From the NCBI GenBank assembly GCA_047967505.1, contig CM106538.1: DNA of 64,000 nt; one strand, 5' to 3'. The notes below the pieces were generated by a model. The model made no database searches. It saw only the letters and a list, made by a program, of their open reading frames with translations, and was not told the DNA's origin. This stretch comes from Dipteris shenzhenensis (lineage: Eukaryota). The translations under genes were made by a program, and so were the position numbers. Below are positions 16,477-47,500 of this stretch, in pieces (the first letter of the stretch is position 1; the number at the start of each line of letters is the position of its first letter).

Positions 16477-17160
16477 CTAGGTTTGTTGTAGCAGCTCATA
16501 TATAATTACTTTTTATCTTAAGCCTGGTATATTTTTGCCGATGATGGTGCCATCAAAGCTCATCTTCAGCTGTCCTTCATCTCTTACTTCTCGAAGCCAC
16601 CCCCTTCTATTCTTTCCTCCACTCAAGGTACATTGCAAGCATGCTACTTTCCTCTACAGACATCTGATTATGCTACGACTGCCTTGAGGAGAGGGAATAT
16701 ATCATTATTCCTAGTACTTTATGAGGACATCCAAAGATACAGGCAGTACAGCGAGGTCCTACTCACAGAAACTTCAATGCTAGGACCAAGGACACACAAC
16801 AGAGATTTTGGACTTCTAGGGTGTTGTAGCGGCTCATATACAATTACTTTTTATCTTAAGCCTGGTAGATTTTTGCCAATGGTGGTGCCATCAAAGCTCA
16901 TCTTCAGCTGTCCTTCATCTCTTACTTCTCGAAGCCACCCCCTTCTATTCTTTCCTCCACTCATGGTACATCGCAAGCATGCTACTTTCCTCTACAGACA
17001 TATGATTATACTAGGACTGCCTTGAGGAGAGGGAAGATATCAATATTCCTAGTACTTTATGAGGACATCAAAAGATACAGGCAGTACAGCGAGGTCCTAC
17101 GCACTGAAACTTCAATGCTAGGACCAAGGACACACAACAGAGATTTTGGACTTCTAGGGT
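16477..17160 (+). repeat. Tandem duplication (~339 bp x2) of a decayed LINE endonuclease segment
   Basis: Units start at 16477 and 16816 and encode ACYFP...LYEDI...NFNART-like APE motifs. Confidence 0.8.
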
Positions 17161-18336: not shown

Positions 18337-21300
18337 TGTGAGAGAATGGAGAGTGAGAGAGAGCAAGAGAGTGAGAGCTGGAGAGCTGAAAGCTTGGAAG
18401 TTGAGTTGCAATAGAAGAGTGTAAAGAGTATAATTGAAAGTGTGAGAGATAAGGTTTTGTCCTAGTGACAAAACCTTAGTAGTCACTAACCATAGTTAGT
18501 GAACTAACTGCGGTTAGGGGGAAAAACCTCTTAAAGAGGGAAAAGTGCCCCTAACTAGCTTATTAAATTACATTGGTCACTGTTGAATTATATCTATAAT
18601 TCTAACACCCCCCTGCAGTGCCAATGTCATGTACAAGGCTGATCAATCACCAAAAGGATATAAGTTCAGGGCACTGCGAAATGCCTCAAACTTTTCATGT
18701 GGTAGTGCTTTGGTGCAAATATCTGCAACATTGTCATGTGTCGACACAAAGATCATACTGATCTCTCCTGCATGCAACTTCTCTCTGACGTAGTGATAGT
18801 GAATCTCAATGTGCTTCGTGCGAGCATGAAACACTGGATTCTTTGCCACTGCAATGGCACTCTGACTATCAGTGCGAATTGGAGAACGACCCTCCAAAGA
18901 CAGATGAAGATCAGCAATAGACGTCGCAGCCATACACATTCAACTGTTGCTGTGAAAGCTGCCCTGTACTCAGCTTCACATGATGAGGTAGCCACTGTAG
19001 ATTGTTTCTTGCTCAGCCAGGAAATGCAAGATTTACCCAAAAAGAAACAATTGTCACTAGTGGACTGCCTAGTGTCATAATCACCAGCCCAATCTGAATC
19101 ACTATAGGCATGCATCTGCAAGTCACCCCCCCTGGGAAATAGCAAGCCAAAAGACTTCGTGCCCTGCAAATAACGGAAGATGCGCTTAACTGCCTGCCAA
19201 TGCATAGTTTTTGGGCTGTGCATGTACATGCTCACCTGAGATACTACAAACTGAATATCAGGTCTAGTGTTGCAGAGATATATGAGGCATCCAACAGCCT
19301 GACTGTAAAGTGTGGCATCAACTAATTCTCCTGCATCATGCATTGTGAGTTTCAGCCCCGGCTCCATGGGAGTGGCTATGGGCTTACAATCATGCATGTT
19401 AAATCTGTCCAAGAGTTTTTGCACATACTTGGACTGAGACATAACAGTGCCACGTCTCTCATGAGAGAACTGGATCCCCAAATAAAAGTGAAGCAGCCCC
19501 AATGTCAAAGTTGGTCTGCAAATCAGCTTTGAAATCTGCAATTTTGTCTTCATTGGACCCTGTGAGCAGTAAGTCATCGACATAAAGAAGGATGACTAAA
19601 ATTTCCCCCCCATCTATCTTGATGTAGAGGGTGCTCTCAGTAGGACTATTGTGCAGCCTTGCTGGTCAAACATCCCAAGTCTGATTTTTTTCAATGGACT
19701 GCAACTCATCGTGCATGGCATTCATCCAATGCACATTGTCCTTTGCCTCTTCGAATGTGGCAGGCTCCTTCTCATCAAGAAGAGTACCTGCATATGCTGA
19801 TTCTACTGAATTAGCACCTTCCATGTGCCTTGCTGCACTGCGAGTTCTGCCAGGTAACAGAGCATCAATTTTACTCTCCCTGAGAGTCTGTAACAGCCAG
19901 TTTGGGACTGTTTTTGTTGCATGTATGTTTGCAATTTCTTGCTGCACCACTTGTTCCACTGCCTATGGAGGGGGCAAGACATCCTGTGGCGGAACTAAAG
20001 CATCTGGAGGTGGCTGTAAATTCTGATTTGCATCAGAAATATCAGCAGGGGAACCCAAGGCAATGGGTAGAAACCCCTCAAAGACATCCTCTGAAGAAGA
20101 AGGCATTTGAAATTCAGCCTGAGTGAGCTGAATTTTCAGCAAATATCACATCTCTACTGACTATGATCTTGCGTGTAGCAGGATTGTAGAGACGGTACCC
20201 CTTGCTTTCTGCACTGTACCCAACAAATATGCACTTAATGGCTTTATCTGACAACTTGTGCCTAAATTCAACTGGCACATGAGCATAAGCAAGGCATCCA
20301 AAGACTCGGAAGTGATCCACTGAAGGCTTTCTCCCATTCCAGACCTCATAAGGAGTTTTTGTTTTTAAAGCCTTAGTGGGAGCCCGATTCAAAATGTAAT
20401 TGGCACACATCAAGCCCTCAAGTCAGAATTTGTGAGGCATGTGTTTGCTTTTCAGCATACATCTGTCCATCTCCATGAGAGTTCTATTTTTCCTCTCAGC
20501 TTTGCCATTTTGCTGAGGGGTCAGCTTGACTGTGAGCTGATGCACAATACCCTTGCCTTTCAGAAAAGCATCAAATTCTGCAAACAAGTATTCCCCACCT
20601 CTATCTGTGTGCAATGTCTGTATCTTGAGTCCGGTTTCATTTTCAACCATGGCTGAAAAGTGTTTAAACGCCGTGAACACTTCTGATTTGCGTTTCGGCC
20701 CAAAAACCCAAGTGAAATTGGAGTAATCATCAATAAATGTAACGAAGTAGAGATGACCACCCAACGATGGAGTCCTCATGGGACCACAGACATCACTGTG
20801 TATAAGCTGTAATTTGCGGACAGCTTTAACTGAACCATCCTTCTTGAAGGGAAATCTATGCATCTTGCCTAAAATGCACCCTTCACAGGCATGTGGAGGA
20901 GGTATCTCAAGAGGTGGCAATGCATCAACCATGGAATGCTTCTGAAGTGTCATCAAGTTGTTGTAATGCATGTGGCCATATCGGGCATGCCATAATTCTG
21001 CATTCTGCATGGCGGCTGTAGGGGTAGAAACTGCAAGAGCATGGGCTGCTCTTTTCTCAAAAAGATCAAGCTGAAAAAGCCCACGCAGCAGAGTACCAGA
21101 TAATCTTAAGGCATAATCATCTTTCCTGTCTCGGACAGCACATTTGTCATCCTCAAAGATGACCTGAAATCCAGCTCTGTTAAGTGTGGACACTGAAAGA
21201 AGATTTTTTGGTTATACGAGGCACATATAAGACATCTGAAAGTCTGAAAATTGAGCCATCAATGGCAGTGAGCTCAACATCTCTTGTGCCACGTACTGAA

Positions 21301-23904
21301 TATGATGAGTTATTGGCACAAGTGACTTTCTTACCAACGGGAGGTGGATGCAAGGAAGTAAAAAGACACTTCCTAGAAGTGATGTGTTTGGATGCACCGC
21401 TGTCAAAATACCAAGTGTTCAGTGTTTCATTGACATTGAAAGCAGATGCATACGTAGAAGAGTCATAACTGCAAGTCAAAAATGCATAAGTATCATCATT
21501 ACAAGTGGCTGTACTATCCCGAGCATCTGGAACAGCCAGCCTTGAATCTGAAATGCAAGATAAAAAGGCATAATCCTATCCAACAAAGTTGGCTGCAGCA
21601 TCCCCACTGTCAGATGCATGAGGAGCTGAATCTGAAACAGCCATACCGGAGCTGTTTTTCTTCTCTTTTGCAATCTTTTTCTTGCATTCTGCAATGTGAT
21701 GACCTGGCTTTTTGCAGTAGTGACAAAAACCCTTCTTCTTGGGCTTACTTGCATCATTTTTGGCCTTTTGTGAAGGCTGTCCTGACCCACTGGAAGGCTG
21801 ATTTACTGATGTCTTTGCCTGTCCCTTTGTTTTTGATTTAAACTTTGAGAGCATGGCTTGTTCACCTGCACGTGAAGCCAAGTTTTTCCTGGTCTGCTCT
21901 TCCTGAAGCAGAAGTCCTATCAACTCATGAAAAGTGAGAGGATTTGCACCCCCCCTCAATGATAAGTTCAGCGAGGTATGAAAGTTGAGATAAGACTCAG
22001 GAAGAGAATTCAGAGTGGTTGTAATCATCTCTGAATTAGGAATAATTTCATCTATGTTTAACAATTGCTCTCTGAGATCCTGTAGCTTTGTGAGGTGGAC
22101 TGACATGGAGTCTCCCTCTTCCATATGTGTATTACTTAACTCTCTTTTCAAGAAAGATACCCTTGCATCATTCTGGGCTGCATACATGCTTTCTAAAATA
22201 TCCCATGCTGCCTTGGAGCTCTTACACGACCAGATATGCGAAATGATAAATCTTTTCACTGAAAGAGAGATGCATGACAAAGCTAAGGCATCTCTTGAAT
22301 CCCATCTCTTCTGATCTAGAGTAGTGGCCATAGCTGCACCAACAACTTGTTCTGCAGCTGCCCCCTGTGCACGACCTCTTCCACCTCCTTGCTGAGGAGG
22401 GGTATTAGGTGCCATACCTGTTGGTCGGATCTCACCCCCATTCACATAATCCCATAAATTGCGAGAAATCAGAATATTGCGTACCATAAAACTCCAGAGG
22501 GAGTAGTTGGTACCATCCAACTTGTCTTCCTGTGAAAGACCACCGAACTGGAAGTCATTCTGATTTTGCTGGGCCATATCTGAGAAAGAGATTTAAGCAG
22601 ATACAAAACTGAATTCCCTTACTGGGAACGAAATGCACAGCTCCCAAAAAACACAGCCAAGCACCGGCTGTAAATGCAACTCAGATTTCTGTACTTGCAC
22701 TGTCAGAAATCTGTCCAAGCATCAAAAACTCTCTAGAATTTGCCAAAAGTGCTGCAAAACACTTCAAGAAAGGCAGTATGAACTGAAAACTCTAGAAATT
22801 GCTCTCCCAACACAAAAGCCCCAAAATAGGCCTGAAATTGCAACCTGAAAGGGGCAAATTGATCAAAAGCCCCAAATGTTGCAAGAATTGCGCTCTGTCT
22901 GCAAAAGCCCCCAATTTCACTGTGAGATTGTAGTGTAATTACAAAATCCCCAAATTTCTTCAAGAAATTGTACTGCAAAACTGAAAGCCCCAAATTTCGA
23001 GCTTGAAATTGCAACCAGAAAGGGGCAGAAGTACAAAAAGCCCCAAATTTTGCAATTTCAGCAGAAAGCCCCAAATTTCAGACCAAATCTGCAATGTTTG
23101 CTCCAAGTGTAGCTCCGAAACTACAAAATGATTGCAATGTCTACAACAAACAAAATGCCCCAAATGTACTCCCAAAAAACTGAGCCAAACAATGGATGTC
23201 TGCAAAATGTGCCTGCCAAAGATCACCTGCGAGTTTCTTCTGTACGGAATCAAAGATTGTACGGAGGATTACCTGCTGTACGAAAGCAGGACCAGTACGG
23301 AAGTACTGTACGGAAGTACGGAGAAGGTACGTGCTGGTATGGGCGGTGACAGCAAACTGTAGGGCTGGTGGCAGCGAGCTGTACGTACAGGTACGAAACT
23401 GTACGGCGAACCGTACAGTCTGACGACGGACTGTACGGCACTTGTACAGACGCGATGTATGACGCCCTGTGTGTTGCAGATCTGTACGGCGGGTACGGTA
23501 CGGCAGGGTACGGACGTGCGGAGACGAAGTACGGATGTCGTACAGTCGTACGGACTGTACGGGCGAGGTGTAGCAGCAGGGTCGTGGGTTGTAGGCTGGA
23601 GCTGAACGGGGAAGAAGCAGGGAGTTGGATCAAATGCTCTGATACCAAATGTGAGAGAATGGAGAGTGAGAGAGAGCAAGAGAGTGAGAGCTGGAGAGCT
23701 GAAAGCTTGGAAGTTGAGTTGCAATAGAAGAGTGTAAAGAGTACAACTGAAAGTGTGAGAGATAAGGTTTTATCCTAGTGACAAAACCTTAGTAGTCACT
23801 AACCATAGTTAGTGAACTAACTGCGGTTAGGGGGAAAAAAAGTGCCCCTAACTAGCTTATTAAATTACATTGGTCACTGCTGAATTATATCTATAATTCT
23901 AACA
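18337..23904 (-). mobile_element. Copia element with paired LTRs (18337-18607, 23650-23904), TSD AGTAG; RT N-half deleted
   Basis: Near-identical TG..CA LTRs, PBS 23636-23647, PPT after 18607. Contains gag, WYFDSGAS protease, integrase and RNase H. QTWDV jumps directly to SPTESTLY at ~19665. Confidence 0.97.
21576..22577 (-). pseudogene. gag: Copia gag (UBN2-type with CCHC knuckle)
   Basis: 333-aa ORF with KLDGTNY and CHYCKKPGHHIAEC. The downstream pol is disrupted. Confidence 0.85.
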
Positions 23905-24278: not shown

Positions 24279-25090
24279 TTGACCATTTAGTCACTACATC
24301 AAAAGGAGCCAAGCATAAAAAAGAGGCTGTATTTTGTTGCTTTTTAGATTTCAAGAAAGCCTTTGATATGGTTCCACGCAAGAAACTATGGGAAAGACTG
24401 GAAAGGCTTCACAAACTTAAAGATGCTACATACCGTCTATATGAGAAAGTATTAGCTGAGCTAGCACAACCACTTGTGGATGGATCATGCTCCAAAGGAA
24501 AAGTGGTTGTCCCCTCTCGCCAACTCTTCTTGTTCTTTTTATCAATGATCTAGAAGATTGGATGAGAATACACAGTAGAGCTGTCCAAATTTCAGGGTAT
24601 GCTCTACCATTGCTTATTTACATAGATGATGTGGTCTTCTTTGCAAAGAGCAGGCATAGAATGCAAGCACATTTGGATGCACTAGGAGACTTCTGCAGAC
24701 ACTCAGGAATACATGTCTTGACCATTTAGTGACTACATCAAAAGGAGCCAAGCATGAGAAAGAGGCTGTATTTTGTTGCTTTTTAGATTTCAAGAAAGCC
24801 TTTGACATGGTTCCATGCAAGAAACAATGGGAAAGCTTGGAAAAGCTTCACAAACTTAAAGAGGCCACATACCATCTATATGAGAAAGTATTAGCTGAGC
24901 TAGCACCACTTGTGGATGGATCATGCTCCATCATGCTCCAAAGGGAAAGTGGCTGTCTCCTCTCGCCAACTCTTCTTGTTCTTTTTATCGATGATCTGGA
25001 AGGTTGGATGAGACTACATCTAAGAGAAGGTGTCCAAATTGCAGGGTATGCTCTATTATTGCTTATTAAAATAGATGATGTGGTCTCTTT
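24279..25090 (+). repeat. Tandem duplication (~439-bp unit) of a LINE RT segment
   Basis: TTGACCATTTAGT(C/G)ACTACATCAAAAGGAGCC at 24279 and 24718. Confidence 0.9.
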
Positions 25091-27580: not shown

Positions 27581-29856
27581 GCCTGAACTCCCTGACTCGG
27601 TACAGATATGTAATGGGGGTGACCCAAACTCCACTCGAATGATCTGGTGAGGGGCGGATGGTTACCATGGATCATCCGTGATAACATGAGAACCTGTAGC
27701 CGCTCCACCCTGGCCCCCACTCTGTATCTGACAAGTTTGGCCCCGAGCATGGACTGCCATACATCCCTGCTGGGCGGACCAAGGAGTCAAAAAGCAGCTG
27801 GTCCGTGGATCCTGAAAGTGAGAGCGGAAGCACTGCCTCTCTAGTCTAGCCAATGAAGCATATCCTCTGCTCAAGCGCGCCTGCATCGCGGGTCTCATGG
27901 TGAAGATGGGTCCGGAAAAGACAACCCCCAGATAAGTGTATGATGAAACTACCTCAACAGGGACCCATCAAATGCGAAATGCTCATTGCGCATGACGGCT
28001 CGAGATGTATTGAAGATCATAACCTTGGTTTTACCCAAGTTGACCTTCAAATCATGAGACTCGGTTCTCGTCCTCGCCATGAGCTGCTGCTCCTCCTCCC
28101 CGTGAGCTACTGCCCCCCCCTCTCCCTCTCTCAGCCAGCCCCCCCTCTCTCTCCCTCTCCCTCGCTGCCCCCTCTCCCCCCCTTGCTGCTGCTCCTCTCC
28201 CTCCCCTCTCGCCAGCCCCCTCTCCCTCCTCCCTCACCCTCCCTCTCCCCTTTCTCCTCCCCGCCCTCCCTCTCCCCCCCCGCTGCCCCCTGCCTCTCCC
28301 TCCCCGCCCTACCTCTCCCCCACCCGTCAGCCCCCCCGCCCCCCTTCTCCTCCCCCGTCATCCCTCTCCCCCCCCTCCCCGCTGCCCCCCTCCCCACTGC
28401 CCCCTTCTCCTCCGCCCTCCCTCTCCCCCGCCAGCCCCCCCACCCCCTTCTCCTCCCCCGCCCTCCCTCTCCCCCCCCACTGCTCTCTCCCTCCCCGCTG
28501 CCCCCTTCTCCTCCGCCCTCCCTGTCCCTCGCCAGCCCCCCCGCCCCCTTCTCCTCCCCCGCCCCCCTCCCTCCGCCTCCCTCTCCCCCCCCCGCTGCTC
28601 TCCCCCCCAAGGAGACCCCCCCCCAAAAAAAAAAACCTCCTCCCTCTCCCTCCCCGCCCCCTTCCTTCCTAACTCAGCTCCCCACGCCTCCCCCTCAGCC
28701 TACCTCCGTCTCTCCCTTCAGTCTATCCTCTCCTTCCCTTCCCCTCTCTCCTACCCTCTCTTTCTCCTTCTTCCTGCGCCCGTGTTCAGGGCGTCCTGGG
28801 CAGTAGTTTCACGGACAGAGCCTTTTCAGTGTTGGAATCGGCCTTTTCACATCGATTGGCGAATAGATTCCCATTCAGCCAATCTCCGTCCACCTCCACC
28901 GGCTACGAGAACCGTCATTTTTTCAGAAGACGAGCTGCAGCAGCTCAAAAAAGATGTGGAATTAGAGGGCTCCACATCACTTTTCGCCCGCATCTTTGGG
29001 TCACACCCTTCCAGATCACAGGCTAGAGACAGGATGCTGGCGACGTTACTAGGAGACCTTGCCCCTCACCTCAGGGATATTCGACTTTTGGGACGTGGAT
29101 TCTTCCAAGTGGTTTTCGACTCCCATAAGTCCACAGCCCTTGTTCTCAAAGCTAATCCCCTGGCTTTGGGTTCGAGGAGGATCTTTCTTTTGCCCTACAC
29201 CTTGGGCTTCGATCCGATCGAGGAGGACAGGCATCGACTGCTTGCCACTATCGGAGCCACATTCGGAGTGGTCACGGAGATCCCCTTCCTTCTTGGCATG
29301 CCTTCTTCCTCGCCAGAGGCAGTCAGTGCAGACGAGGTGCCTCGTGTTAGGGTCATTGTCTCTGACCCTAACATCTCAGATGACCACATTATGCTTCAGC
29401 ATCCAGACAGCTCTCTCTTTCGACAGAGAGTCGAGATTTCAGGTAGATAGGACCAGTGCATGATTTGCAGGACCCTTGGGCACATTGCTAGAGACTGCCC
29501 AAGGAAGAGAAAAAGACCCAAGAGGTCTTCTGGTGCGGCTCCTTCACGTACTACCACAACTGCACCTCCCCAACACCCTATACCACGCACTCCAGGACCA
29601 CCAAGAGCAACAGGGCGCTCTGCTTCGTGCACCCCAAGACCACCAGGGGCAGCAGGGCACCCAATGCCCGCAGCACACCCAGTACCATGATGGAGAGCTA
29701 TCAGAGCGGCTCCCTTACCTCAGGAGGAGACTTTTGATCCTACTGTTCAGACAGACGCCTTCCAGACTCTAGAGGTGGATGTTGCTGCAGCCCCAGACAC
29801 TACAGTTCCACATCAGGAGGGGCCTTTAGATCCACCAGCCCCAGTCACTTTGGTTT

Positions 29857-32800
29857 CTGATACCATGTTAGAAAATACCCAACAGAGGGTACACGCAACG
29901 GAATACTTATAGTAATGCCCAGGAGCTCACACAGTGTGTGGTGTGGGGTGTGGAATCACAAACTTCTTTACTTATGTGCATTCAATAGATGTGCAGACTC
30001 ATCAATAGACAATGAACCAACCAGATAAAGAAACTACCAAAATATATATTTCCGTCCACAACTATGGACACAATACAAAAGAGACAGATCTAGAGTCCCA
30101 CCAATGATGTGGTCCTCTGATCTTACCACAAGGTCCTTCTCCTATCTGCTGGCTATCTCTAGACTCGAGCCCGCGTGCTCCACCTCGAGCTTCTGTAGAC
30201 TTTCCGTCCAGATCCCTTCCACCTTGCTGTCTTTGTACCAGCCTAGGTGGGCAGCACTCTGAGCTAGGTCTGCAGCTCTACAGCTCTCTTGTCTCCTTCT
30301 GGATAGAGACCCACAAGTGGCTGATCTGCTGCTCCTTCTGCTCCCTGAACTGCTGCTCCAAGTGATGAGAAGTGAGGCCACAAGGACGTCCTTTTATAGG
30401 GCCCCAAGGGCTGGCAAAAATACCGACCAGCCTGCAGCAAACTGGCCGACCAGACTGGCCGACCAGTCTGGCTGGTCCAGCCCTATAAGGGCTCACAACC
30501 CAGGGCTTTTGGGCCCGCACTTCTAGGGCCCTTGGCACTCCAATCTAGGCAAGGGCCCAGCCCTATATAAAGCTGCCATAACTGCGCCTCTGCCATAACT
30601 GCCATAACTGCGCCTCTGCCAGGCCCTTTTCCAGTTCCGCATAGAGCCGTACACCCTGTAGATGTCAGCGCCATGTGATCGCTTTTTGTTCCGGGTTCCT
30701 TGTGCTGGCTACTGCTTTGCCTTTTGCTGCTGCAGATCCATCCTAGCTCCAGGTACCCTCCATCTCTTTGATTCTTGCCCACAACAGCTCTAGATGCATT
30801 GCCCACATGACAGCCAAGATGCTGTCCATGTGGCAGCCCCATCTTATCACTCAATCCCTTCTGGCTCTTGTCCACATGGCATCCAATCAGATGCCCATGT
30901 GACAGACACTCAAACCCTAGGTTCACCCCCCCCCATGCTCTCCTCATATGGGGGCTTACAGATGGGGAGGTGACCTTTCCAACACCCCCTCTCACCGACA
31001 CATCTCGGCCCAATGCCAACACATTGATGACGATGCTCCAGTAACTCCCGGGTCGTAGTTCTCTGGAACCTTTCGGTGTCAAAATCTTTTCCTGGCTTTT
31101 CATCCAGTGGCTCTTGCTCCACCGGGTCTGGTCGCGCCTCCACACACCATCCTGGTACACAAGTCCATCTTTGGTAGCACCTCCTGGCACCACCTCCTTC
31201 AGTCACGTTCCCGCCTTCGAACTCAAGCAATCCAGCTATCACGATCTTCCAGTCGTCCCCCTCATAATGAATGAACAACCTGGAGTCTTCCGGGCACCAT
31301 GCTCTGAGGGTATGTTTCCACGTCCTTCCTGTGGCAAGGTTTGCAACCAATGAATATTTCCAGATAACCTAGACCATGAACTCTCGCCGAGTTCTCAAGC
31401 AGGTACTCTTCTGGCTTCAGTACTCTTTGTCCATCACCTTCTAGCAATCTGCATCCGAGATTTGAAGAAGCACCAATACTTCCCCTTCTGCCTTCGAAGA
31501 AGGCCAATTCCTTCCAATCTCGTATCACCTGAGACAAATGAAGAGCAGAGTCTCTCCACAGCATGCTATAAAGGCTCAAATGCAGAATATCAAATACATA
31601 CCAGACTATTGTACTGCCTGAATGTTTGCCTTGTATTGTCCCCTTCTGAACTCCAGCATCCATCTGACCATGAGACCCCAGGGCCTTCCATGGAATCCAC
31701 CATCGTGTCAGTGTCGACAGCCACACACCTGGAAGGTACCAAGCGCTCCATGCTGTCCTTCACCTTCACAAAGGCATCTGACTCCTCGTCGACCCACATC
31801 TCTATGTCAGACATCCTCACTGTGATTTCTAGATCAACATATCTGACCTCGGTAACACTCGGTGATGTCACCAGGAACAACTCCTTGATTACCACATTTG
31901 CTTTGGCCTCTCCCTCTGAATTTGAGTTAGACTCCTTTTTGTTTTTCTAATCCGCCTTTTTCTTTCTGCAGTCCTTTGCAAAATGTCCTGGCGTATCACA
32001 ATAGAAGCACTTCTTCTTATGCTTCCTCTTTGAAGTCCCCTCATCGTCAGAGTCATCTTTCTTGGACTTGCCACTGTTAGGCTTGCCCTTTCCTTTGCCA
32101 GCGGAATCCTTCGCCAGCATCGCCTTGTCGTCTTTATCCTCATTGTAGGGCTTCTCCTGAGCTTCCTCCTGTAGCAGTAACGGACCCAACTCCTCAAATG
32201 TCAGAGGTTTGATCCTCTGTCCTGCTGTCACAGTCGTAACAAAGCTCTTGAAACTCCGAGGCAGTCTCCTCAGTACCATCAAGGCCAAATGGCATGAGTT
32301 TGTCTTCTGACCAACTGTTGCCAACTGATCCCTCACCACCTTGACCTTCGTCAAATGGCTATGTACCGTATCTCCTTCTTCCATATCAAGATTGTAGAGT
32401 TGATGCTGAAGAAGCAAAATCCGGGAGGTGTTGTCCGTCTCGTACAGATCTTTCAGGGTGGCCCACGTCTCTACCAACATCTCGGCCAGCTGGATATGCG
32501 GAAGCACGGAGTCCGCTGTAGTCCCTATGATTATTGCTAGGGCATGGGCATCTCTGTCTTCCCAAGCTTCAAGCTCCTCTCTGTCTACTGCCATGAGTAT
32601 CTCCCCTTTCCTATCCACCATGTCCTCCGGCTTTGACTCCACTCCCGTGGTCAGCTTCCACAACTTCCGAGCCACTAAATGACACCGGATCTTCACTTTC
32701 TAGATCGGGTAATTAGTCTCGTCCAGGTTCCCAGACTCTCCAAAGTTAGGGATAGTGAAAGAGAGAAAACTGAGGGAGGAGGAAGGGAAAGCAGGGGCTG

Positions 32801-34186
32801 AAGAGGCTGTAGAGGTTGACATCTCTATTGTTTATACCACACAGCAAAGTCAACCATACTCAATTTCAGTAGACCAGAATTCTAAATGCACCTGACTGAA
32901 CCTGAGTCACCCTCCTTCTTGCAAGGGCACAATCCTCCAGTCGTGGAAGTCGATTCCCTAGAGCTTCTGAATCAGGGTCGTCCTTCAGCAAGGTCCCTGC
33001 CTTCAGGCTCCTACACCTGTGAGCCTCCTACTTGGGCTCTGATACCATGTTAGAAAATACCCAACAGAGGGTACACGCAACGGAATACTTATAGTAATGC
33101 CCAGGAGCTCACACAGTGTGTGGTGTGGGGTGTGGAATCACAAACTTCTTTACTTATGTGCATTCAATAGATGTGCAGACTCATCAATAGACAATGAACC
33201 AACCAGATAAACAAACCACCAAAATAGATATTTCCGTCCACAACTATGGACACAATACAAAAGAGACAGATCCAGTCTCCCACCAATGATGTGGTCCTCT
33301 GATCTTACCACAAGGTCCTTCTCCTATCTGCTGGCTATCTCTAGACTCGAGCCCGCATGCTCCACCTCGAGCTTCTGTAGACTTTCCGTCGAGATCCCTT
33401 CCACCTTGCTGTCTTTGCACCAGCCTAGGTGGGCAGCACTCTGAGCTAGGTCTGCAGCTCTACAGCTCTCTTGTCTCCTTCTGGATAGAGACCCACAAGT
33501 GGCTGATCTGCTGCTCCTTCTGCTCCCTGAACTGCTGCTCCAAGTGATGAGAAGTGAGGCCTCAAGGACCTCCTTTTATAGGGCTCCAAGGGCTGGCAAA
33601 AATACCGACCAGCCTGCAGCCAACTGGCCGACCGGTCTCTGGCTGGTCCAGCTCTATAAGGGCTCACAACCCAGGGCTTTTGGCCCCACACTTCTAGGGC
33701 CTTTGGCCCTCCAATCTAGGCAAGGGCCCAGCCCTACATAAAGCATGCCACTGCCCCCTAGCAGCCCTATTTGCTGCTCCACATCTGCGCCTGCACATCC
33801 TGCCATAACTGCGTCTGCCAGGCCCTTTTCCAGTTCCGTACAGAGCCGTACACCCTGTAGATGTCAGCGCCATGTGATCGCTTTTTATTCCGGGTTCCTT
33901 GTGCTGGCTACTCCTTCGCCTTTTGCTGCTGCAGATCCATTCTAGCTCTAGGTACCCTCCATCTCTTTGATTCTTGCCCACAACAGCTCTAGATGTGCTG
34001 CCCACATGACAGCCAAGATGCTGTCCATGTGGCAGCCCCATCTTATCACTCAATCCCTTCTGGCTCTTGTCCACATGGCATCCAATTAGATGCCCATGTG
34101 ATAGACACTTAAACCCTAGGTTCACCCCCCCCCATGCTCTCCTCATATGGGGGCTTACAGATGGGGAGGTGACCTTTCCAACACCC
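29857..34186 (-). mobile_element. Gag-only (TR-GAG-like) LTR element; LTRs 29866-30984 and 33048-34183
   Basis: Paired ~1.1 kb LTRs, PBS 33036-33047, PPT 30985-30993, Copia-type gag and no pol motifs. Flanked by TTGGTTT on both sides. Confidence 0.92.
31947..32822 (-). pseudogene. gag: Gag of the TR-GAG-like element (one in-frame stop at ~32700)
   Basis: LDETNYPI*K, UBN2-like core and CFYCDTPGHFAKDC. Confidence 0.85.
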
Positions 34187-37100
34187 TTGGTTTGTGACCA
34201 CGAGGGGGCTACAGGTACTTCTTCCCCGCAGACCGTTCCTGCCACAGTCAGGACAACCGAGAAAGTGCAGGCGCAGATGAGGGCTACTGATTCCTCTTCA
34301 CCGCAGCCACAGGCCTCCTCAACCCCCAGCGCTAGTTCTGCTGATAGAGGCGTGGCAGGTCCTTCTCCTCCATCTTCCACGAGTGCAGGTCTTCTTTGCA
34401 CTCCTCGGCCAGACTTGCTTATCAGGAATTCTTTTTCGGCACTGGCAGATTCGGCGACTTTCATGGATGATGAGGAGTTTGTGCCCTCCACCTTAGGGGT
34501 CCCGGTCATTGGGATTCCTTCTGACAGGGCCTCCCTTTCAGCAGGTATGGGGATCCTTTCACCTGTTGAGTTTCCTGCCCTTAGTAGGAGTGTTTCGGCC
34601 CAGGGGAAGCTGGTCTCCTCTACTAGGTCGGGTAAGCCTTTCCATCCAGCATCCTCCTGTCGATGAGGATAGTCAGCTGAAACATACAGGGCCTAGGCGG
34701 AGTTCCATACTGTCGCCGTAGGCAGCTGATCCGGAATCAGCTTCATCCAGGCGTCACTGGAGGTGCTATTGATATCCTTTTTATCTAGGAACACAAGCTG
34801 GATGCCAATGATTGCAGTCTGGCAAACTGCTTTCAGGACATACCTTCTGGTTGCCTGCTATGGGCACAAGGGGAGGTACTTGCATTTCGGTCTCTCTTTC
34901 TATTCTCCCCTTGGTTGCTGGACATGGTATTATCTCCCCTTCTAGAGCTCAATGGATCATTATTTTGATTGGAGGGCGTAAGACTGGTCTTCTCAATCTT
35001 TATGCTCCCAACAACAGAGGGGAGCGGATCTCCTTTTGGAAGGAGTTACTCTCTTGGGCCCCCATTGCAGATTCTTGGATCATTGGTGGCGACTTCTACA
35101 AGGTTGAGATGGCATTTTCAGCCTCAGCCTTGGTTTCTTTCTACCTCATTCCTCTGAGGTGTTTTTTATTACATTCTTAGCATGGTGTATTTCCGCACAG
35201 AGCTTGCTCTAGCGGGTTTCTTTCTTACTTAATAAAAGTCTCTTTTTTGAAAAAAAAAAATCATGAGACTCACAAAAGGACTGTAGTGCGTCAAGGTGTC
35301 TTTGGAGCCCCTCTGTTGAGGAAGACAAGAGAGCCACATCATCTGCGTAAAGTAATAACCGGATCAGCGTGCCCGTGAGAGAGCAGCCTACCCCACCCTA
35401 TGCATGCATCACTGTCTCGTCGATGTAGAGGCCAAACAAGATAGGTGATAATGGGCACCCTTGTTTGACCCCGATAGTGCTCATGATCTTGTCTGTCCTC
35501 CAGATCCTGTCCGGACTTTGCCTGAAACTCGCTCATAAAGTGCCATGACAGCCCAAATGATCTCCTGGTCGTAACCTAGATCCTGTAGGCGTCGTATGAG
35601 GCGGGCTCTCGGAACGGTGTTAAATGCCTTGCGGAAGTCCACAAAGCAACAGTGAACCCTTTGCTTCCGTGCCTTCGCCTCCTCGATGATACATTTGAGC
35701 ACGAGAATGTGGTCCATGGTCCCATGATCCCGCTTGAAGTCGGCCTGTCCCGCTGCTCTAAGTCCTCAACACTCCGCAAATCTATTGACCTCAGAATCAA
35801 GTACTGATGCATAAATCTTGGACATGACATGTCCAATCATAATGGTCCTGTAGTTCTTCGGGTTCATGGGATCCCTTGCCTTGTGGATGGGTGAGATAGT
35901 GTTGATGGTCCAAGTGTGTGGAAACCCCAAGCAAACGGCTTCATTAAATAGCTTGGCTAACATCGGGGCTAGGAGGTTAATCCCATATGCAATGAACTCA
36001 ATGCATAGTTCCTCATGATCCTTCGCTCGGCCATTATGAAGTTTCATTACGACATCCTTTACCCCCTCCCCCCCTAGTGAAGAGGGTGCATGATGTGGGG
36101 CGTGGCATATGTGATAGGTTAGGGGCTGGCTGATTTGGGATATCATAGAGCGTGCGTGCATAATCAGACCACACTTGAGTGTCAGTGAGGGGGGGGGGGG
36201 GGACCGTCTCTCTACGCCAGAAGTTCTTAGAGTTGTTACTGAACAAAATGTTCAGTAGCTCCTCCTCGTTCCGACGCACTTTGTTCTTCCTGCGTACCAG
36301 ACGACGGTACTCGTGTTACGCCTCTGGTTCGCTCGGAAGGCTATTTTTTATTCCGAATCTGATCTGACGGCGTAAAGTCTTACACTCATCATCGTACCAG
36401 CTATTACAGGGTACGGTACCAGGAGATGGTGGGCAGCTGGAGCGGGTGGTGTAGGGGAAGGCGTGAAGAGTAGCCTTGTGTAGTTAGCGAGTGACTAGGG
36501 CAGCACGGTCCTCTAATAAGGATATATAGTCAATGTATGCGAGAAGTATATACAAACGGCCAGAGTAAGTAGGTGAGTGATCGCGATCAAAGCGTATATC
36601 ATGGTAGGTGGAGTAAGAACTCAATGGGGTAGAAAGTGCTATGCGGCGAGGGGTAGAAATGCTAAAGAAAAGATAGGTATGATCAGCCCCTGGAGGGAGA
36701 GGTGCTACGGTAAAGTTAGTGATGCAAGATGTGAAGGCAGGGAATCCCATGATATAGTCCACAACACTGGAGCCTCTCCCATGTGGAAAGCAAGTGAAGC
36801 CACCTGATGCGGGCCATTTGTCAAGACCATTATAGATAATGAGATTATGCATCCTGCCGAGGTCTAATAGGGCCTACCCATAAGATGTGAGCAGTCCTCG
36901 TCTGTCAACCGAAACTCGTAGCATACCTGCCTCCTCAAGGTCAATGTCTAGCAGTAGAGTGGAATCATCCTTTGAAGTCGAGGAGTGGTGCGTGACAAGC
37001 GCCTGTTCTCGCGTTGAAGTCCCCAACTAGGAGCACTTCCCCAGGGCTAGAGAAGTCCACAATGGACTAATAAAGAGTAGCAAATGGGGATGTTTGATCC

Positions 37101-38739: not shown

Positions 38740-41700
38740 TGTAGGTGCGGTCAGCGTGGGAGCAAGCACAAGAGTCGAAGCTGAAGGCTGTTACGTCAAC
38801 TAGAATGAAGAAAGGAAAGTACAAAGTACATGAAGATAGACCCTCGGACTAAGTGTCGTAGGTGTATAGGACTAAATGTCCTATGTGGCATAAAAGGCAC
38901 TAAAACACTAAAGTGCCTATAACTATGCCTACAAGGCACATACCAAGGCCCATAGGGCATCACTACGACCGGATGAAGATGGCCTACAAACCCCCCTTCA
39001 TGGTATGGGCTGAAGTATTCTAGAAACGTCTCAGAATACCTGGTATTTTCTGGTCACGGTGGCACATGTTCATCCAAAAGGATATAGCCACCTATGAATG
39101 TACAAGGTATGTCAGATCATGTAACAAAGGGAACCAAGTGTAAAGCCTGTCGGAAGACTTCGAACTTGGGACGAGGAAGTGTCTTTAGAAACATATCTGC
39201 TATGTTGTCCTCTGTGGGAAGGTAGGACAACTCTCTGTCTCCTGCTGACAACCGCTCTCAAACATAATGATAGTGAACTTCAATGTGCTTGGTACGCGCA
39301 TGAAACACTGGATTACACGCAATGGCCAAAGCACTCTGGCTATCAGTGTAGACCATAGTGGAGGATGTCTGGCGAATACCAAGATCTGTAAGTAATTGTC
39401 GAAGCCAGACACACTCTACTATAGCAGTGAAGGCTGCCTTGTACTCAACCTCACAGCTGGATGTGGCAACTGTTAGTTGCTTCTTGCTGAGCCAAGAGAT
39501 ACATGAATTGCCAAGCAAAAAACAATTGCTGGTATGTGAAACTTTGGTGTCAGAACAACCTGCCCAGTCACTATCCGTGCAAGCATGCATGGTAAGTGAA
39601 CCCTGATCACCGTAGAAAAGGGCTAAATCCTGAGTGCCTCTGAGATATCTGAAGACTCTCTTCACTGCCTACCAATGCTGTGAACTGGGCATGTGCATGA
39701 ACCTGTTGAGCTGGGATACTGCATACTATAAGTCAGGTCTGGTGTGGCATAAGTAAATTACACATCCAACAGCCTGCTGGTAAAGAGTGATATCACATGG
39801 TGGCTCCCATCATGAGCTGAAAATTTGAGGCCAGGGTCTACTAGAGTAGAGATTGGCTTGCAATCCTCAAACTGAAAACGATCAAGGAGCTGTCCGATAT
39901 ACTTGGACTGTGACATCATGATACCCCCCTCAACATGAGCAAACTGAATGCCCAAATAATAGTGCAGCTCTCCGTGACATTTCAAAAGCTTGCTGCAAAT
40001 CAGCCTTTGAAAGCTGCAATATGCTAAGTATTAGGGCCCATGATCAGCATGTCATCCACATATAAAATCAGCACTAAAAAATCAGATCCACTCCCACGGA
40101 CATAAAGAGTGGGCTCTGTGGGGCTATTCTGAAAGCCAAAATTTATTGGGCAAGGACTTGGCCTTAAGCATGCATCTGGCCATCTCCATAGTGGACCCAT
40201 TCTTCCTTTCAGGAACAGGATTATGCTGAGGAGTGTAAGGAGTAGTGCATGAGTCAACAATGCCCCGTGAAGACAAAAATGCATCAAACTCCTTTGACAT
40301 ATACTCTCCCCCCCCATCTGTGTTTAGGGTGACAAGCTTGCATCCTGATTCATTCTCAACCATATTCAGCCACCTTTGAAAGCATGAGAACACTTCAGAT
40401 TTGGCTTTTAAAGCATATACCCAGCAATATCTTGTGAAGTCACATCAATGAGAGTCATGAAATATTTGTACCCCCTAATGGCATTTAACTTCATTGGGCC
40501 ACAGGCATCATTGTGCATGAGCTTCAATTTCCTTTGTGAGAATTTTGGACAATTCTTTTGAAAAGGAAACCGATGCATCTTGCCCAAAAGAAAACCCTCA
40601 CAAACATGTTTGGAAACTGTGCGAGTTTGAGGTACATCATTTGCCATGCCCTGTGAATGTAACTTGCAAGAGCTCTATAATTGAGATGACCCATTCTCTC
40701 ATGCCAAAGATGAGTTTAAGCAAGCTGTGAATCTGAAATAGCAAATGCTTCAATAGAGAGTGCAGCTGAGTGATCATCAAGGTGATAAAGCCCCTTTTTC
40801 AATGTGCCAGTGAGAACTATGGCATTGTCATCACGAAGATCTTATACCAGGCATGTGTATCCATCAAAAACCGAAGTGGCAATTGCTGAAATTGAAATCA
40901 AGTTGACTTCAATTCCGGGCACAAAAAGAACATTAGTCAAAGTGACAGAATGGCTTGAAATGGATGTGAGCTGCACATCTCCAGTTCCTTTTACAGCATA
41001 GGAAGCTTTATTAGCACATGTGGCAGTCCCCCCTCGGGGTGCATTAGCTAAGGAATGAAACAACTATTTGCAAGATGTCATCCTAGAGAGCATGTGCATG
41101 TGAGGCATCTGCTCGCTCGTGGGATTCAATTGCATGTGAAGCATTAACTGTCAATCTTGCTTTCTTTTTCTCCGAAGTAATGCGCTTCTTGCATTCTGAA
41201 ATTTCATGCAGTGGCTTGAGACAATAGTTGCATCTTTTCTTCTTTGACTTATCTGCTGTATTTTTAGATGCATTGGAGGAATTGCCACTGTTAGGCGCAT
41301 ATCTAGGCTTGCTTGGAAGCCTTGCCTTTTCTTGTCTGTTGTGAAGCAAATGCATGATCAGGAATAGTAGCTTGCCTATTCGCACGACTTTGCTCTTCCT
41401 GCAAAAGAAGAGTAACTACGTGATCAAAAGAGTAGTGGTCTGGATTACCCATGGCCACTAATCGAAGGGTTGTAGCAAAACCTTGATATGTATTTGGCAG
41501 TCCATTCGATGTGGTACTGACAAGCTGAGAATTTGGCACTACCTCATTAATATTGGCAAGTTGTTCCATGAGGTCCTTGACCTTTGTCAGGTATGCATCC
41601 ATAGAGTCGCCTTCATTCATACTAACTTCCTGCAATTGCCTTCTTAAATATGCAACACGTGCCTCATTGCAAATCTGATAAAGAGAAGCCAATTTGTCCC

Positions 41701-43279
41701 AAGCATCCTTTGCTGTACTGCAAGACCGGATGTGTGGAATAATGATTCTCTTGCATGATAAAGCAATACAGGAATGTGCATTTGCATCTCTTGCATCCCA
41801 TCTTGTTTGTTCCTGAGTTGGAGGAGCAGCAGCAAGGGTGCTAGAGGATAAAGCATCAGGAGGGGTACCCTCTGTAGAGGGACCAGCAGTAGGGGTAGCC
41901 ACTCTAGCATTGGCTGGCCTCAGATCAACCCCAGAAACAATATTCTAAAAATGCCTTGCAACAAGAATATGTTTCATGAGATAAGACCACATCGGATAGT
42001 TGGTGCCATCCAACTTATCATCTTCACGAAGAATGCCAAATAGATCATGATTGTTGCTAGCCATTGCAAATGCGATACCTTGAAAAGAAAAGACCTAAAA
42101 ACACAAAAGCCTCAAGGCTATCACTGCAAAGGGCTGGCTGTCCAAAAAATGACAGCAAATGTTTGCAAGTAAATGTTTTGCAAATTTCCAGCCCAAATTA
42201 AAGGGCAAATGCAAATTTGACCCAAATGTGATTGTGTCAGGCAATGACCACTGCAAAAATCAGCAAATCTGGCAAAAGCCCCAAATGTGATGAGGGCAAA
42301 AAAAGCCAGAAAGAGGGCAAATACAAAAAAGCCCCAAATTTTGCTGAGATTTTGCAAATGTGACCCAATGTCTTGCAATCTGACCCAATGTCCTGCAAAT
42401 GTGACTGAATGTCTTGCAAATGTGACCCAATGTCCTGTAATCTCAACAAGAAATCGCAATTTAAATCCCAAAGCTCCAATGTCTTGCAAGAAGTTGCAAC
42501 CAAAAGAGGGAAAAGTACAGAAAATCCCAAATTTGCCAATGTCTTGCAAAAGCCCCAAAACTGCAAATGTCTGTAGATGACTGCAGTGAGACCCAAAAAA
42601 AAGGTATAGCAAGCAAGAACCAATAACCTAGTTCACAGCCAATGCCTAAACAGGAACGGAACCTGTAGATAGATTTGCACATGTGAAACCTATACGGAAC
42701 GCCCGAAGCAGGAACAAGCTGTACGGACAGAGGTATGCCTGCAGGTACGCTTGTACAAAAGCAAGTGCACCTGTACGGAAGGCAAGTACATGTGTATTGT
42801 ACATGCATAGTTTGTATGATGCAAGTACAATTGTACGGCGCATGTATGTATGCAAGTACGGTTGGCGTTGAACTGCAAGTAGAAGGACAGTTGACGGAAA
42901 ACACGAGGCTGTACGGTAAAGCACGTGACCTGTACGGATTGTACGGATGGGGGTGCAACTTGAGCTGGGATTAGGGAGCAATGCAGGTCCGGGGGTAGGG
43001 GAGCAGGTCCTAGGAGCTCTGATACCACTATAGGTGCGGTGAGCGTGGGAGCAAGCACAAGAGTCAAAGTTGAAGGCTGTCACGTCAACTAGAATGAAGT
43101 AAGGAAAGTACAAAGTACATGAAGATAGACCCTAGGACTAAGTGTATTAGGTGTCACATAGGACTAAATGTCCTATGTGGCATAAAAGGCACTAAAACAC
43201 TAAAGTGCCTATAACTAGCCTACAAGGCACATACCAAGGCCCATAGGGCATCACTACGACCGAGAGAAGATGGCCTACA
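38740..43279 (-). mobile_element. Copia element with LTRs 38740-38988 and 43029-43279, TSD CTTAC; multiple internal deletions
   Basis: PBS 43016-43027, PPT after 38988, gag CNYCLKPLHEISEC. Integrase is fused directly to late RT at ~40125. Confidence 0.95.
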
Positions 43280-43747: not shown

Positions 43748-44584
43748 GTGAGGAGATGGGCTGAGCATTTGAAGGAGGAGGAGACGAAAGCCTCTCTCTC
43801 TCTCTCTCTCTTGGGGTCTCTCTATATCTATCTAGCAATTCTCCTTTCTATCTAGCAATTCTTCCACTCCCAAGGTCATGTAGCAAGGCGATTGTGTGAA
43901 AGCCAAGGTACTCTGCAACAGGGCCCTGAGAAGGGCGCAATGACATCAGCAGAGTACGGACCCACTGTACGGGGCTGTACGGAGGCCTATTGGCTGGAGG
44001 GCTGTACGGAGGCCTATTGGCTGGAGGACAGGGCTAATGGTGTCCTGGCTGAAGGCAGGATCTGCAGTGGCCAAAGGCGTCTGCATGGCAGAGCCTTTGG
44101 GCCTTGTATGGAGCCTGCAACAGGTCGAGAACAGGGCCAGCAGGTGGGCAGATTGCTTGGGCCCATGGCGCGCTGCAACGAACAGCCCCCAACCAGGTCG
44201 GTTTACAGATTGGGGGGGGAGGGGGGCAGACTGGTCGGCCCAAACAGACCCTAAAAGTCGGCCCTACCAGGTCTGTTGGTTCAAGGGCCTTGTGCCCTAT
44301 AAAAGGAGAGGCCCCTTGGCCTCATTTTACATCTTCTGGAGCAGCAAAACACCAACAGTCAGGAGCAGCATGAGACCTACTCTTGGAGCCTATTCGTGGA
44401 GGACCAGGAGAGAAGAAAGAGCTGCAGACTGAGCTTGAAGGGCTGCCTACCTAGGCTGACACTCAGGGCAGCCAGGTAGAGAAGAACACTTTGGACAGAG
44501 AGTCTACATACGCTTGAGGTGGAGCAAGCGGGCTCAGAGATCTAGAAGTGCTTCACATCTAGTAGGAGAACCTTTTGGTATTGT

Positions 44585-47500
44585 TGTGAACAAAAATGGA
44601 GTGCAAGAGTGAAAGTGAGCAAACGTTAAGTGTAGTGAATAGAATAGTGGAATAAAGTGAGTACAAAGAAAGAGTGAGGGGTTTTGTCTCAATGACAAAA
44701 CCCTATCCTATCCACTAACCGTAGTTAGGGATTGGACAGTGGTTAGGGGGAAAAACCTCAATGAGGGAAAAGTGCCCCTAACCTACTTATTACAATACAT
44801 TGGCCACTGCCTAGAATATGATAATAGTCCTAACACCCCCCTACAGTGCCAATGTGGTGTACAAGGTAGTGATCAATCGCCAAAAGGAGATAAGTTTAGG
44901 GCACTGCGAAATGCCTCAAACTTCTCATGTGGAACTGCTTTGGTGAAGATGTCTGCAACATTGTCATGTGTTGACACATAGATCATATTGATCTCCCCTG
45001 CATGCAACTTCTCTCTGACATAATGATAATGAACCTCAATGTGCTTCCTGCAAGCATGAAACACATGATTGTTTGCACTGCCATAGCACTCTGACTATCA
45101 ATGAGAATTAGAGAAGGACCCTCCAAAAAAAGACGAAGATCAGCGAACAAACGACACAGCCCAATGCATTCAACTGTCGTTGTGAAAGCTTCCCTGTACT
45201 CAGCTTCACATGAGGAAGTCGCCACTGTAGATTGCATCTTGCTCAACCAAGAAATGCAAGCTTTGCCCAAAAAGAAACAATTACCACTAGTGGACTACCT
45301 GGTAATAGGTATCATAGTCTCCAGCCCAATCTGAATCACTGTAAGCATGCATCTCCAAGTCACCCCCCTTGGGAAACATCAAGCCAAAAGACTTTGTGCC
45401 TTGCAAATAACGGAAGATGCGTTTTACAGCCTGCTAATGTGTTGTCTTTGGGTTGTGCATATACCTACTCACCTGAGATACTGCATACTGAATATCGGGC
45501 ATAGTATTGCACAAATAGATGAGGCATCCAACAGCCTGGCTATAAAGTGTGACATCTACTGATTGACCTGCATCATACATAGTAAGCTTCAGCCCTACCG
45601 GCTCCATGGCAGTGGCTATAGGCTTACAATCATGCATGTTGAACCTATCCAAGAGCTTCTGCACATACTGGATTGAGACATAACGATGCCACGCTTGTCT
45701 TGTATAAATTGGATCCCCAAATAAAAATTTAACATGCCCAAATCTGTCATGTCAAATTCAGCTTTCAACTCAGCTTTGAAATTTGCAATTGTTTCCTCAT
45801 TTGACCCTGTGAGCAGCATGTCATCTACATAAAGAATGATGACCAAGATATCCCCCCCATCCTTCTTGACGTAGAGGGTGCTTTCCGTCGGACTATTATC
45901 CCCCCCATCCTTCTTGGCATACCATGCATGTGGGGCTTGTTTCAGCCCATACAAAGCTTTGTTCCGCTTGCAAACCAGAAATGCATCCCAGAAAGTTTAA
46001 ATCTAGGAGGTTGTTTGACATAAACCTCTTCTTGCAAGTCCCCATTAAGGAAAGCTGTTTTTATGTCCAACTGATGGACATTTCAAACAAAATTTGCAGC
46101 CATGGTAATAACTGACCTTATGGTGGTCATCTGGGATGTAGAAGCAAAAGTCTCCTCATAATCTATGCCCTTCTTCTGTGCATAGCCTTCAGCAACCAGC
46201 CTTGCCTTGTACCTGTCAATGGACCCATCTGGTTTCCGTTTCACTTTGAAAACCCACTTGGTACCAATGGCATGCTTACCTGGTGGCAAATCTACAACAT
46301 CCCAAGTCTGATTTTTCTCAATGGATTGCAATTCATTGTGCATGGCATGCATCCAATGCACATTATCCTTTGCTTCTTTAGAAGAGTCAGGTCTTCTTCA
46401 TCAAGAAGAGTACTTGCATAAGCTGTCTCAACTGAAAGAGCTGCCCCTGTGTACCTTACTGCACTATGAGTCCTGCCAGGCAATGGTGCCTCAAGCCTAC
46501 TCTCCCTGAGAGTTTGTAGCAACCAATTCGGGACTGTTTACCACAGACATCACTGTGTATGAGCTGTAATTTTCAAGTAGCTCTTACTGCACCATCCTTT
46601 CATTAAGCTGCCATAGCCCATGTGCCCATACCTGGCATGCCATAACTCCGCATTTTGCATCGCAGCAGTGGGAGTGCTCACTGAAAGTGCAAGATCGGAT
46701 CTTTTCTCATATATGTCAAGTGAAAAAGACCCCGATACAAGGTGCCAGACAACATCAAAGCATAGTCATTCTCTTTGTCTCTGACTGCGCACTTAGCATC
46801 ATTGAATATAACATGAAATCCTCCTCTATTGAGAGAGGACACTGAAAGCAAATTATTTTTTATACCTTGCACATAAAGAACATCTGAAATTCTGAAATCT
46901 TTGCCATCAGTGGATGTGAGGATGATGTCCCCCACTCCACACACCGAATAAGAATATTTATTTGCACAAGTCACCTTCTTTTTAGTAGGTGGAGGAAGTA
47001 GAGATGTAAAAGGACTCTTCTTAGAAGTGATGTGCTTAGAAGCACCACTATCAAAATACCAAGTATTCACTGTCTCATTGACATTGAGAGAGCACGCATC
47101 CTTTGAAGGATCATAATTGCAAGCCAAGAAAGCATATTGATCATCCTCAATAGTGGCTGTAGTATCTGAAGTATCCACTAAAAAAATATGAAATGCAAGA
47201 CAAAAAGGCATAGTGCTCTTCCCTGAAGTTGGCTGTAACATTCCCTCCATCATGTGCATTAGGAGCCGATGCATTTGACACAGCCATACCGGAATCCCTT
47301 TTCGCGCTTCATTCATTCACCAATATAATGACCTGGCTTCTTGCAGTAGTGACAAATGCCCTTCTTTTTAGGCTTATTTGCATCACCCTTAGCCTTATAA
47401 GAGGGCTGTCTTGAATCAGCTTTATGCTGATGTGCGGGCTGATTGGCATGTTGCTTTTGCTGCTCTTTTCCTTTGGGCTTAAACTTAGAAAGCATGGCAT

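Follow-up and report, generated by a model that had tools for sequence, protein, structure and literature searches.

Primer-binding-site letters beyond the 3' LTR of a gag-only retrotransposon of the Copia type in Dipteris shenzhenensis suggest integrase-independent capture of its cDNA

A 64,000-nucleotide stretch of contig CM106538.1 of the plant Dipteris shenzhenensis (GenBank assembly GCA_047967505.1), hereafter the window, contains a long terminal repeat (LTR) retrotransposon lying on the minus strand within a plus-strand poly(A) retroposon. Immediately outside its 3' LTR, this focal element is followed by letters of its own primer binding site (PBS), and it lacks the 5-bp target site duplication (TSD) left by an ordinary integrase reaction. 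The best explanation of this structure, to which we assign a rough probability of 0.6, is that host repair, independently of integrase, joined a full-length cDNA still bearing an unprocessed PBS tail to a PBS-like site in the host.

Structure of the insertion

The features of the insertion and of its host, in coordinates of the window, are as follows:

About 28063-35259, plus strand: host poly(A) retroposon, ~2.9 kb without the LTR element
28063-29860, plus strand: left part of the host, a non-LTR poly(A) retroposon with an ORF1-like frame (ORF, open reading frame) and a CCHC knuckle seen by eye
29850-29860, plus strand: host letters at the left junction, TTGGTTTCTGA, the last 4-5 of which (TCTGA) are common to host and PBS
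29861-29865, minus strand: TACCA, or TGGTA in the orientation of the element, corresponding to the first five letters of the PBS and located just beyond the 3' LTR
29866-34183, minus strand: focal LTR retrotransposon, 4318 bp
29866-30984, minus strand: 3' LTR, 1119 bp, TGTTGG...CTAACA on the element strand, its ends set by the contigs of other copies and by the ends of related LTRs (52955 and 56777)
30985-30993, minus strand: polypurine tract (PPT), GAGAGGGGG on the element strand (CCCCCTCTC as written in the window), adjoining the 3' LTR
31944-32822, minus strand: gag, with Retrotran_gag_2 and zf-CCHC, a single in-frame stop at 32700-32702 and no pol after it
33035-33047, minus strand: PBS, TGGTATCAGAGCC on the element strand (GGCTCTGATACCA in the window), adjoining the 5' LTR
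33048-34183, minus strand: 5' LTR, 1136 bp, TGTTGG...CTAACA on the element strand
34184-34186, no strand assigned: CCC, which is more likely to belong to a host C-run (CCCC here in host relatives from run X1, see below) than to be three letters of the PPT
34187-35259, plus strand: right part of the host, beginning TTGGTTTGTGACCAC, the second unit of a 15-bp duplication, and ending in poly(A)

Reading across the insertion, the order is TTGGTTT (29850-29856), CTGATACCA (29857-29865), LTR, internal part, LTR, CCC (34184-34186), TTGGTTT (34187-34193) and GTGACCACGAGG. These are exactly the junction letters given by the original prediction, and the letters outside the LTRs do repeat the PBS and PPT as it had stated: all nine letters beyond the 3' LTR are identical to the PBS, and the three letters before the 5' LTR, GGG in the orientation of the element, are identical to the last three of the PPT. 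The repeated segment of the element comprises CTGATACCA, the LTR and CCC, and the sequences flanking its two copies are different. The five letters directly outside the LTRs are TACCA on one side and CCCTT on the other, so that no TSD of 4-6 bp abuts the terminal TG and CA. Further, TGGTA(TCAG) comes after the CA of the 3' LTR, which means that the unique 5' (U5) end of the element was not joined at its terminal CA. Placements of a canonical 5-bp TSD on the host sequence were also tried and rejected, each requiring at least four changes within ten letters.

The host site before insertion

Thirteen public runs were listed, 8 of which contain part of the window, the best share being 0.17 and the uncovered parts uninformative. 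Contigs of four of the public runs (codes X1, X2, X3 and X5) were placed on positions 29300-33060, an interval that covers the left junction, the 3' LTR and the internal part; the right junction lies outside it. Among the contigs listed, three come from uninterrupted relatives of the host (one in X3 and two in X1) and align with the window through TTGGTTT-CTGA to 29860, after which they continue in host sequence. Following TTGGTTTCTGA, the X3 contig reads CCACGAGGGGGCC and onward (beginning CCACGAGG), which matches the right flank in the window after GTGA. The two X1 contigs continue after 29860 with CCCC-TTGGTTTCTGA-CCACGAGGGGAC and onward (i.e., CCCC-TTGGTTTCTGA-CCACGAGG). After CTGA these three contigs read CCCC or CCAC, never TACCA.

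As judged from these contigs, the host family exists in two forms: in one, TTGGTTTCTGACCAC occurs as a single unit, and in the other there is a tandem duplication of 15 bp, TTGGTTTCTGACCCC / TTGGTTTCTGACCAC, which preserves the frame. The X1 form corresponds to the two flanks of the window joined together without TACCA and the element, save for one C and a single C/G difference. Most simply, the host copy of the window would have carried the 15-bp duplication before the insertion. Given such an already duplicated host, TTGGTTT would not be a TSD, CTGA and CCC would be host letters, and the insert would consist of TACCA plus the element, with the loss of one host C. Hence, the 7-bp TSD of the original prediction is probably not a TSD and more likely forms part of the tandem duplication seen in the X1 contigs; TTGGTTT, CTGA and CCC are all most likely host letters.

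This also narrows the overhangs which had been proposed at the two ends. A PBS overhang of 9 nt had been claimed, and its nine letters do match the PBS throughout; however, four of them (CTGA) are already present in the host relatives. By comparison with those relatives, TACCA comprises the only certainly extra letters, which extend the host CTGA into the perfect nine-letter PBS match and are missing from the relatives, and the unambiguous overhang is 5 nt. The original prediction was to count as refuted if the host family already had the letters beyond the 3' LTR at this site, and this is half the case: the relatives contain CTGA without TACCA. Similarly, the CCC interpreted as a 3-nt PPT overhang does match the PPT, but it is indistinguishable in sequence from the host C-run, which is its more likely origin.

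Homology of the target to the primer sites

Comparison of the host letters TTGGTTTCTGA with the PBS region of the element, TTGGGCTCTGA at 33032-33042, shows that 9 of the 11 letters match. Allowing 14 registers, a similarity of this degree is reached at 0.27% of window positions, a figure which also counts the true PBS copies of other elements and therefore overstates chance. Only 0.33% of window positions combine a perfect match of at least 5 nt on the PBS side with one of at least 3 nt on the PPT side. In the host relatives the site adjoins a C-run resembling the PPT, and the homology of the target to the primer site is present in all three contigs, i.e., before any insertion. Such homology matches published systems (see below). 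The PBS tail probably annealed to this similar target, and to that extent the annealing of a PBS overhang postulated by the original prediction appears sound. The homology that it had named, the resemblance of TGGTCAC to the PBS, was rejected, being located at the opposite junction; the real homology is TCTGA within the 9/11 match.

Canonical ends of other copies

Counts of loose contig ends are given here for the best-supported cases, beyond which there are 58 further ones. At least three contigs in three runs (X2, X3 and X5) start matching the window exactly at 29866. At the other end of the LTR, the match to the window ends at 30984 in at least six X2 contigs and at 30985 in at least three X5 contigs, and the onward sequences of these contigs differ from one another, as expected of separate insertion sites. 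Additionally, the window has two related U5 ends, and neither runs on into PBS letters: GATGT comes after the end at 52955 and CTTCC after that at 56777. Accordingly, the LTR termini of the family are read as TG and CA at 29866 and 30984, and the other copies are canonical among the ends listed. Since both the contigs and the related U5 ends are canonical, the extra letters are peculiar to the focal insertion.

The window holds four other LTR pairs, three of which have a perfect 5-bp TSD directly at TG/CA. These three serve as controls, and agree with the 5-bp TSDs previously noted for them:

18337-23904: Copia-like element, TSD AGTAG
38740-43279: Copia-like element, TSD CTTAC
44585-49313: Copia-like element, TSD ATTGT

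The PBS core GCTCTGATACCA is common to all three. The fourth pair (49391-52955), a relative of the focal family, has lost the start of its 5' LTR, and its TSD is consequently not scorable.

Gene content and age of the focal element

The gag domains recovered by Pfam (Retrotran_gag_2, E 6.7e-29; zf-CCHC, E 1.4e-5) represent the sole recognisable gene of the focal element, and no pol accompanies them, which bears out its earlier description as gag-only. In the ~980 bp of remaining internal sequence Pfam detects no family at E values of up to 1, and a comparison of 30985-31964 with the three Copia-like elements of the window gave no translated likeness beyond gag and no pol similarity. In terms of these sequence features, the element is classified as a gag-only, TR-GAG-like element of the Copia type. 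Its PBS presumably matches a tRNA. A search for tRNA genes in the window found none. In Arabidopsis, Copia elements have been described as primed by tRNA-iMet (Lee et al. 2020).

The two LTRs differ by 48 substitutions over 1106 aligned sites, along with 3 indels, giving a Kimura two-parameter distance (K2P) of 0.045. At substitution rates of 1.3e-8 to 2.2e-9 per site per year, the age of the insertion comes to about 1.7 to 10 million years.

A diverged second gag-only member of the family lies on the plus strand at 43913-52955, with an internal part 83-86% identical to that of the focal copy and an identical PPT at about 51857-51865. Its PBS is degenerate, approximately the first 242 nt of its 5' LTR are gone, and the 4.7-kb Copia-like element at 44585-49313 (TSD ATTGT) is nested in that LTR. 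A U5-end fragment of a further related LTR stands by itself at 56666-56777; it is ~90% identical over 112 nt, ends in CTAACA followed by CTTCC, and could be a solo or a truncated LTR.

A model for the insertion and its alternatives

Under the favoured explanation, a complete linear cDNA of this gag-only Copia-type element would have entered the nucleus with an untrimmed PBS tail extending past the 3' LTR, a tail that would originate from copying, during plus-strand synthesis, of the primer that the minus strand still carries. Insertion would not have proceeded by the concerted reaction of integrase. Instead, host repair, either single-strand annealing or microhomology end joining, would have joined the PBS tail to a break in the poly(A) retroposon, at a site resembling the PBS region (TTGGTTTCTGA against TTGGGCTCTGA of the element), with the other cDNA end joined at the neighbouring PPT-like C-run. 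The expected product would retain TGGTA outside the 3' LTR, lack a TSD and have lost at most one host base, the TTGGTTT repeat being part of the 15-bp tandem duplication, which the host family would have had before the insertion. Directly shown are the structure of the product, the canonical termini of other copies and the sequences of the host family; what we infer is that the cDNA had a PBS tail, which repair pathway joined it and that integrase did not act. The insertion may have depended on Rad52 or on end joining. The original prediction had likewise invoked the capture of an unprocessed intermediate without integrase. The U5 end not joined at CA, the lack of a 5-bp TSD and the PBS letters outside the LTR are consistent with that proposal, whereas the other end, that of the unique 3' (U3) region, may be flush.

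Several considerations weigh against this explanation. Under this reading the U3 end is flush with the CA of the LTR, and its joining could have been the work of integrase. The statistics on homology are post hoc, and among the contigs listed none bridges host and LTR at 29856/29857, so that the left junction is known from the assembly alone. The event is a single and old one (K2P 0.045), and some of the junction letters may have mutated since. The pre-insertion state of the host is based on three short contigs, from runs holding only small shares (0.17 and 0.09) of the window, and the duplicated state is read from relatives rather than from the host copy of the window itself. Moreover, if that copy was duplicated, removing TACCA and the element leaves 14 instead of 15 letters, one base out of frame, whereas the reconstruction of the original prediction restores the host frame exactly.

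The alternative that survives best shares the capture of a cDNA but starts from a single-unit host, TTGGTTTCTGACCAC. In this amended version of the original prediction, there would be a real 11-bp duplication, TTGGTTTCTGA versus TTGGTTTGTGA, of which the earlier reading had seen 7 bp, and CCC would be filler derived from the PPT. The exact restoration of the host frame upon removal of the insert and one repeat is in its favour, as is the existence of a single-unit host relative in X3; further, the one mismatch in 11 bp is consistent with the 4.5% divergence of the LTRs. However, the X1 contigs have the 11-bp repeat split by CCCC without any LTR element, a form which would then have to reflect either a coincidence with no explanation or an almost exact loss of 4.3 kb, a loss not derivable from the junction letters. 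On balance, a single-unit host appears unlikely.

A one-ended integration, to which we give only a small chance, would have integrase join the flush U3 end (CA at 34183), with host repair attaching the PBS-blocked U5 end afterwards. If the host was duplicated, the CA does adjoin host letters at 34183/34184, and the U5 end was clearly not joined at CA. Yet no 5-bp duplication is present, and as the C-run also matches the PPT, homology explains the U3 end too; the sequence does not separate the two.

It is very improbable that the insert was copied during break repair from a genomic tandem array or concatemer (internal part-LTR-internal part-LTR-internal part) with microhomology at both ends. 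Such arrays are common in plants (PMC11899658), and TCTGATACCA-LTR-internal part-LTR-CCC would be contiguous DNA in one. Nevertheless, both breakpoints would have to fall no more than 10 nt outside the LTR ends of a ~3.2-kb unit, for which we estimate odds of ~1 in 100,000 if random and which is expected of cDNA termini, and the window contains no tandem array of the focal family. Least probable of all is an ordinary integrase insertion with later mutation of the junction, or else an assembly error: although the insertion is old and no independent contig bridges the junction, any 5-bp TSD placement would call for at least 4 changes in 10 nt that create a perfect PBS match by chance, and a misassembly would not keep both flanks of the host repeat contiguous.

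The host retroposon

The host carries a 12-bp TSD of its own, ATCATGAGACTC, at 28051-28062 and 35260-35271, and ends in an A-run at 35250-35260; a poly(A) tail and a long TSD of the kind left by target-primed reverse transcription, both of which are expected of an L1-type long interspersed nuclear element (LINE), are therefore present. Pfam recognises no family in the pieces of its ORF, the CCHC knuckle being visible by eye, and the host amounts to only ~2.9 kb without the insert. The host frame, as read by eye, becomes continuous once the insert and one TTGGTTT are removed, in agreement with the earlier claim, and L1 ORF1 is a reasonable, if putative, label for it.

Searches for a second copy of the host ORF1 region in the window by blastn, tblastn and pattern scan found none. 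The frame to the right of the insert (159-160 residues) has no match among longer proteins or among proteins of similar length, and against 1.84 billion representative proteins it returned one weak match (E 8.1e-4 over 27 residues). A metagenome scan for the uninterrupted host form retrieved 3 unrelated loci sharing only the 21-mer, and scans of a genome-contig and a viral-contig collection gave 0 matches each.

The host retroposon (28051-35271) is itself nested in an older minus-strand LINE with an RVT_1 fragment at 35481-35765, and another copy of this LINE, at 62770-62860, shows the site unoccupied. The 5' part of its long frame (28083-28700) is a very proline-rich, CCT/CCC-rich region of low complexity, with 43-nt repeats at 28500-28605. 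A 341-bp, 5'-truncated copy of its tail lies at 50177-50539; it is 74% identical to 35102-35260, ends in poly(A), is flanked by an 11-bp duplication, GTGGACTCATG, and splits the gag of the second copy of the focal family. Elsewhere, the window contains three close tandem direct-repeat pairs (8251-8898, 16484-17121 and 24279-24909), with units of ~340-440 bp that are 89-95% identical.

Relationship to known systems

Ty1 cDNA is reportedly captured at chromosomal breaks, and Ty1 cDNA with "untidy ends" has also been reported; in these cases host repair joins cDNA from which the primers were imprecisely removed, as proposed for the focal case. The captured Ty1 pieces are said to be mostly fragments, which differs from the full-length focal copy.

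A close parallel is provided by the Tf1 retrotransposon of fission yeast. In the absence of integrase, the first five PBS letters are found downstream, and the last three PPT letters upstream, of Tf1 insertions (Li et al. 2022, PMC11042837). Much Tf1 cDNA has single-stranded PBS and PPT tails, and the integrase-independent route requires the annealing activity of Rad52 (PMC11042837). The focal insertion likewise has a downstream flank matching the first PBS letters and an upstream flank matching the last three PPT letters, at a target homologous to the primer sites and with no integrase-type duplication (PMC11042837). Unlike the Tf1 events, the focal case is natural, comes from a plant, is full-length and has both junctions visible. 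Its homology lies at PBS positions 5/6-10, so that five PBS letters are kept as an insert, and whereas the Tf1 events mostly formed tandems at existing elements (PMC11042837), the focal insertion formed none. Integrase mutants of HIV-1 leave 1-4 virus-derived PBS letters at junctions with PBS homology (PMC11042837); in both systems the junction letters match the PBS and are absent from the host, with five such letters in the focal case. However, the HIV-1 events concern a retrovirus in cell culture, and the LTRs were truncated in the majority of them (PMC11042837).

With respect to the element itself, TR-GAG elements resemble it in having LTRs, a PBS and a PPT and in coding for gag alone (Chaparro et al. 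2015, PMC4350172). They are, however, shorter than 4 kb (PMC4350172), as opposed to the 4318 bp of the focal element with its ~980 bp of internal sequence lacking a known family. Tandem LTR-retrotransposon structures of plants have, like the focal case, been discussed as possible integrase-independent products (PMC11899658); their LTRs are shared by the units and they mostly show 5-bp TSDs, while the focal insertion is a single unit with PBS letters outside the LTR.

Where the plant literature, in the portions consulted, cites integrase-independent insertion, it does so only for tandem arrays or TSD-less copies (PMC11899658, PMC12786077, PMC13570524). No junction-level plant case was found in the literature searched, which comprised the main texts of openly accessible papers. 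The mechanism as such is already known, and the focal copy is the probable first natural plant example of this known route. The original prediction had suggested that, if recurrent, such events would amount to a distinct route for a pol-less element; this finds no support, as every other end of the family among those listed is canonical. The mechanism is published for Tf1 and HIV-1 (PMC11042837), and there is no sign that the route is special to gag-only elements. A broader idea is that a Tf1-like, integrase-independent route based on primer homology operates in plants at a frequency sufficient to produce full-length, TSD-less copies with PBS letters outside the 3' LTR, and that gag-only elements, having no integrase of their own to contribute, may rely on it more than autonomous ones; we regard this speculation as unlikely.

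Implications

Integrase-independent insertion guided by primer homology has been demonstrated by experiment in fission yeast and inferred for HIV-1. If the explanation favoured here is true, the focal copy would be the first junction-level example of a Tf1-like route of this kind in a plant. It also cautions that a short repeat around an insert may be host sequence rather than a TSD. Further, it offers a search pattern, namely the first PBS letters coming after a 3' LTR, in combination with the lack of a 5-bp TSD, the occurrences of which could be counted in any long-read plant assembly.

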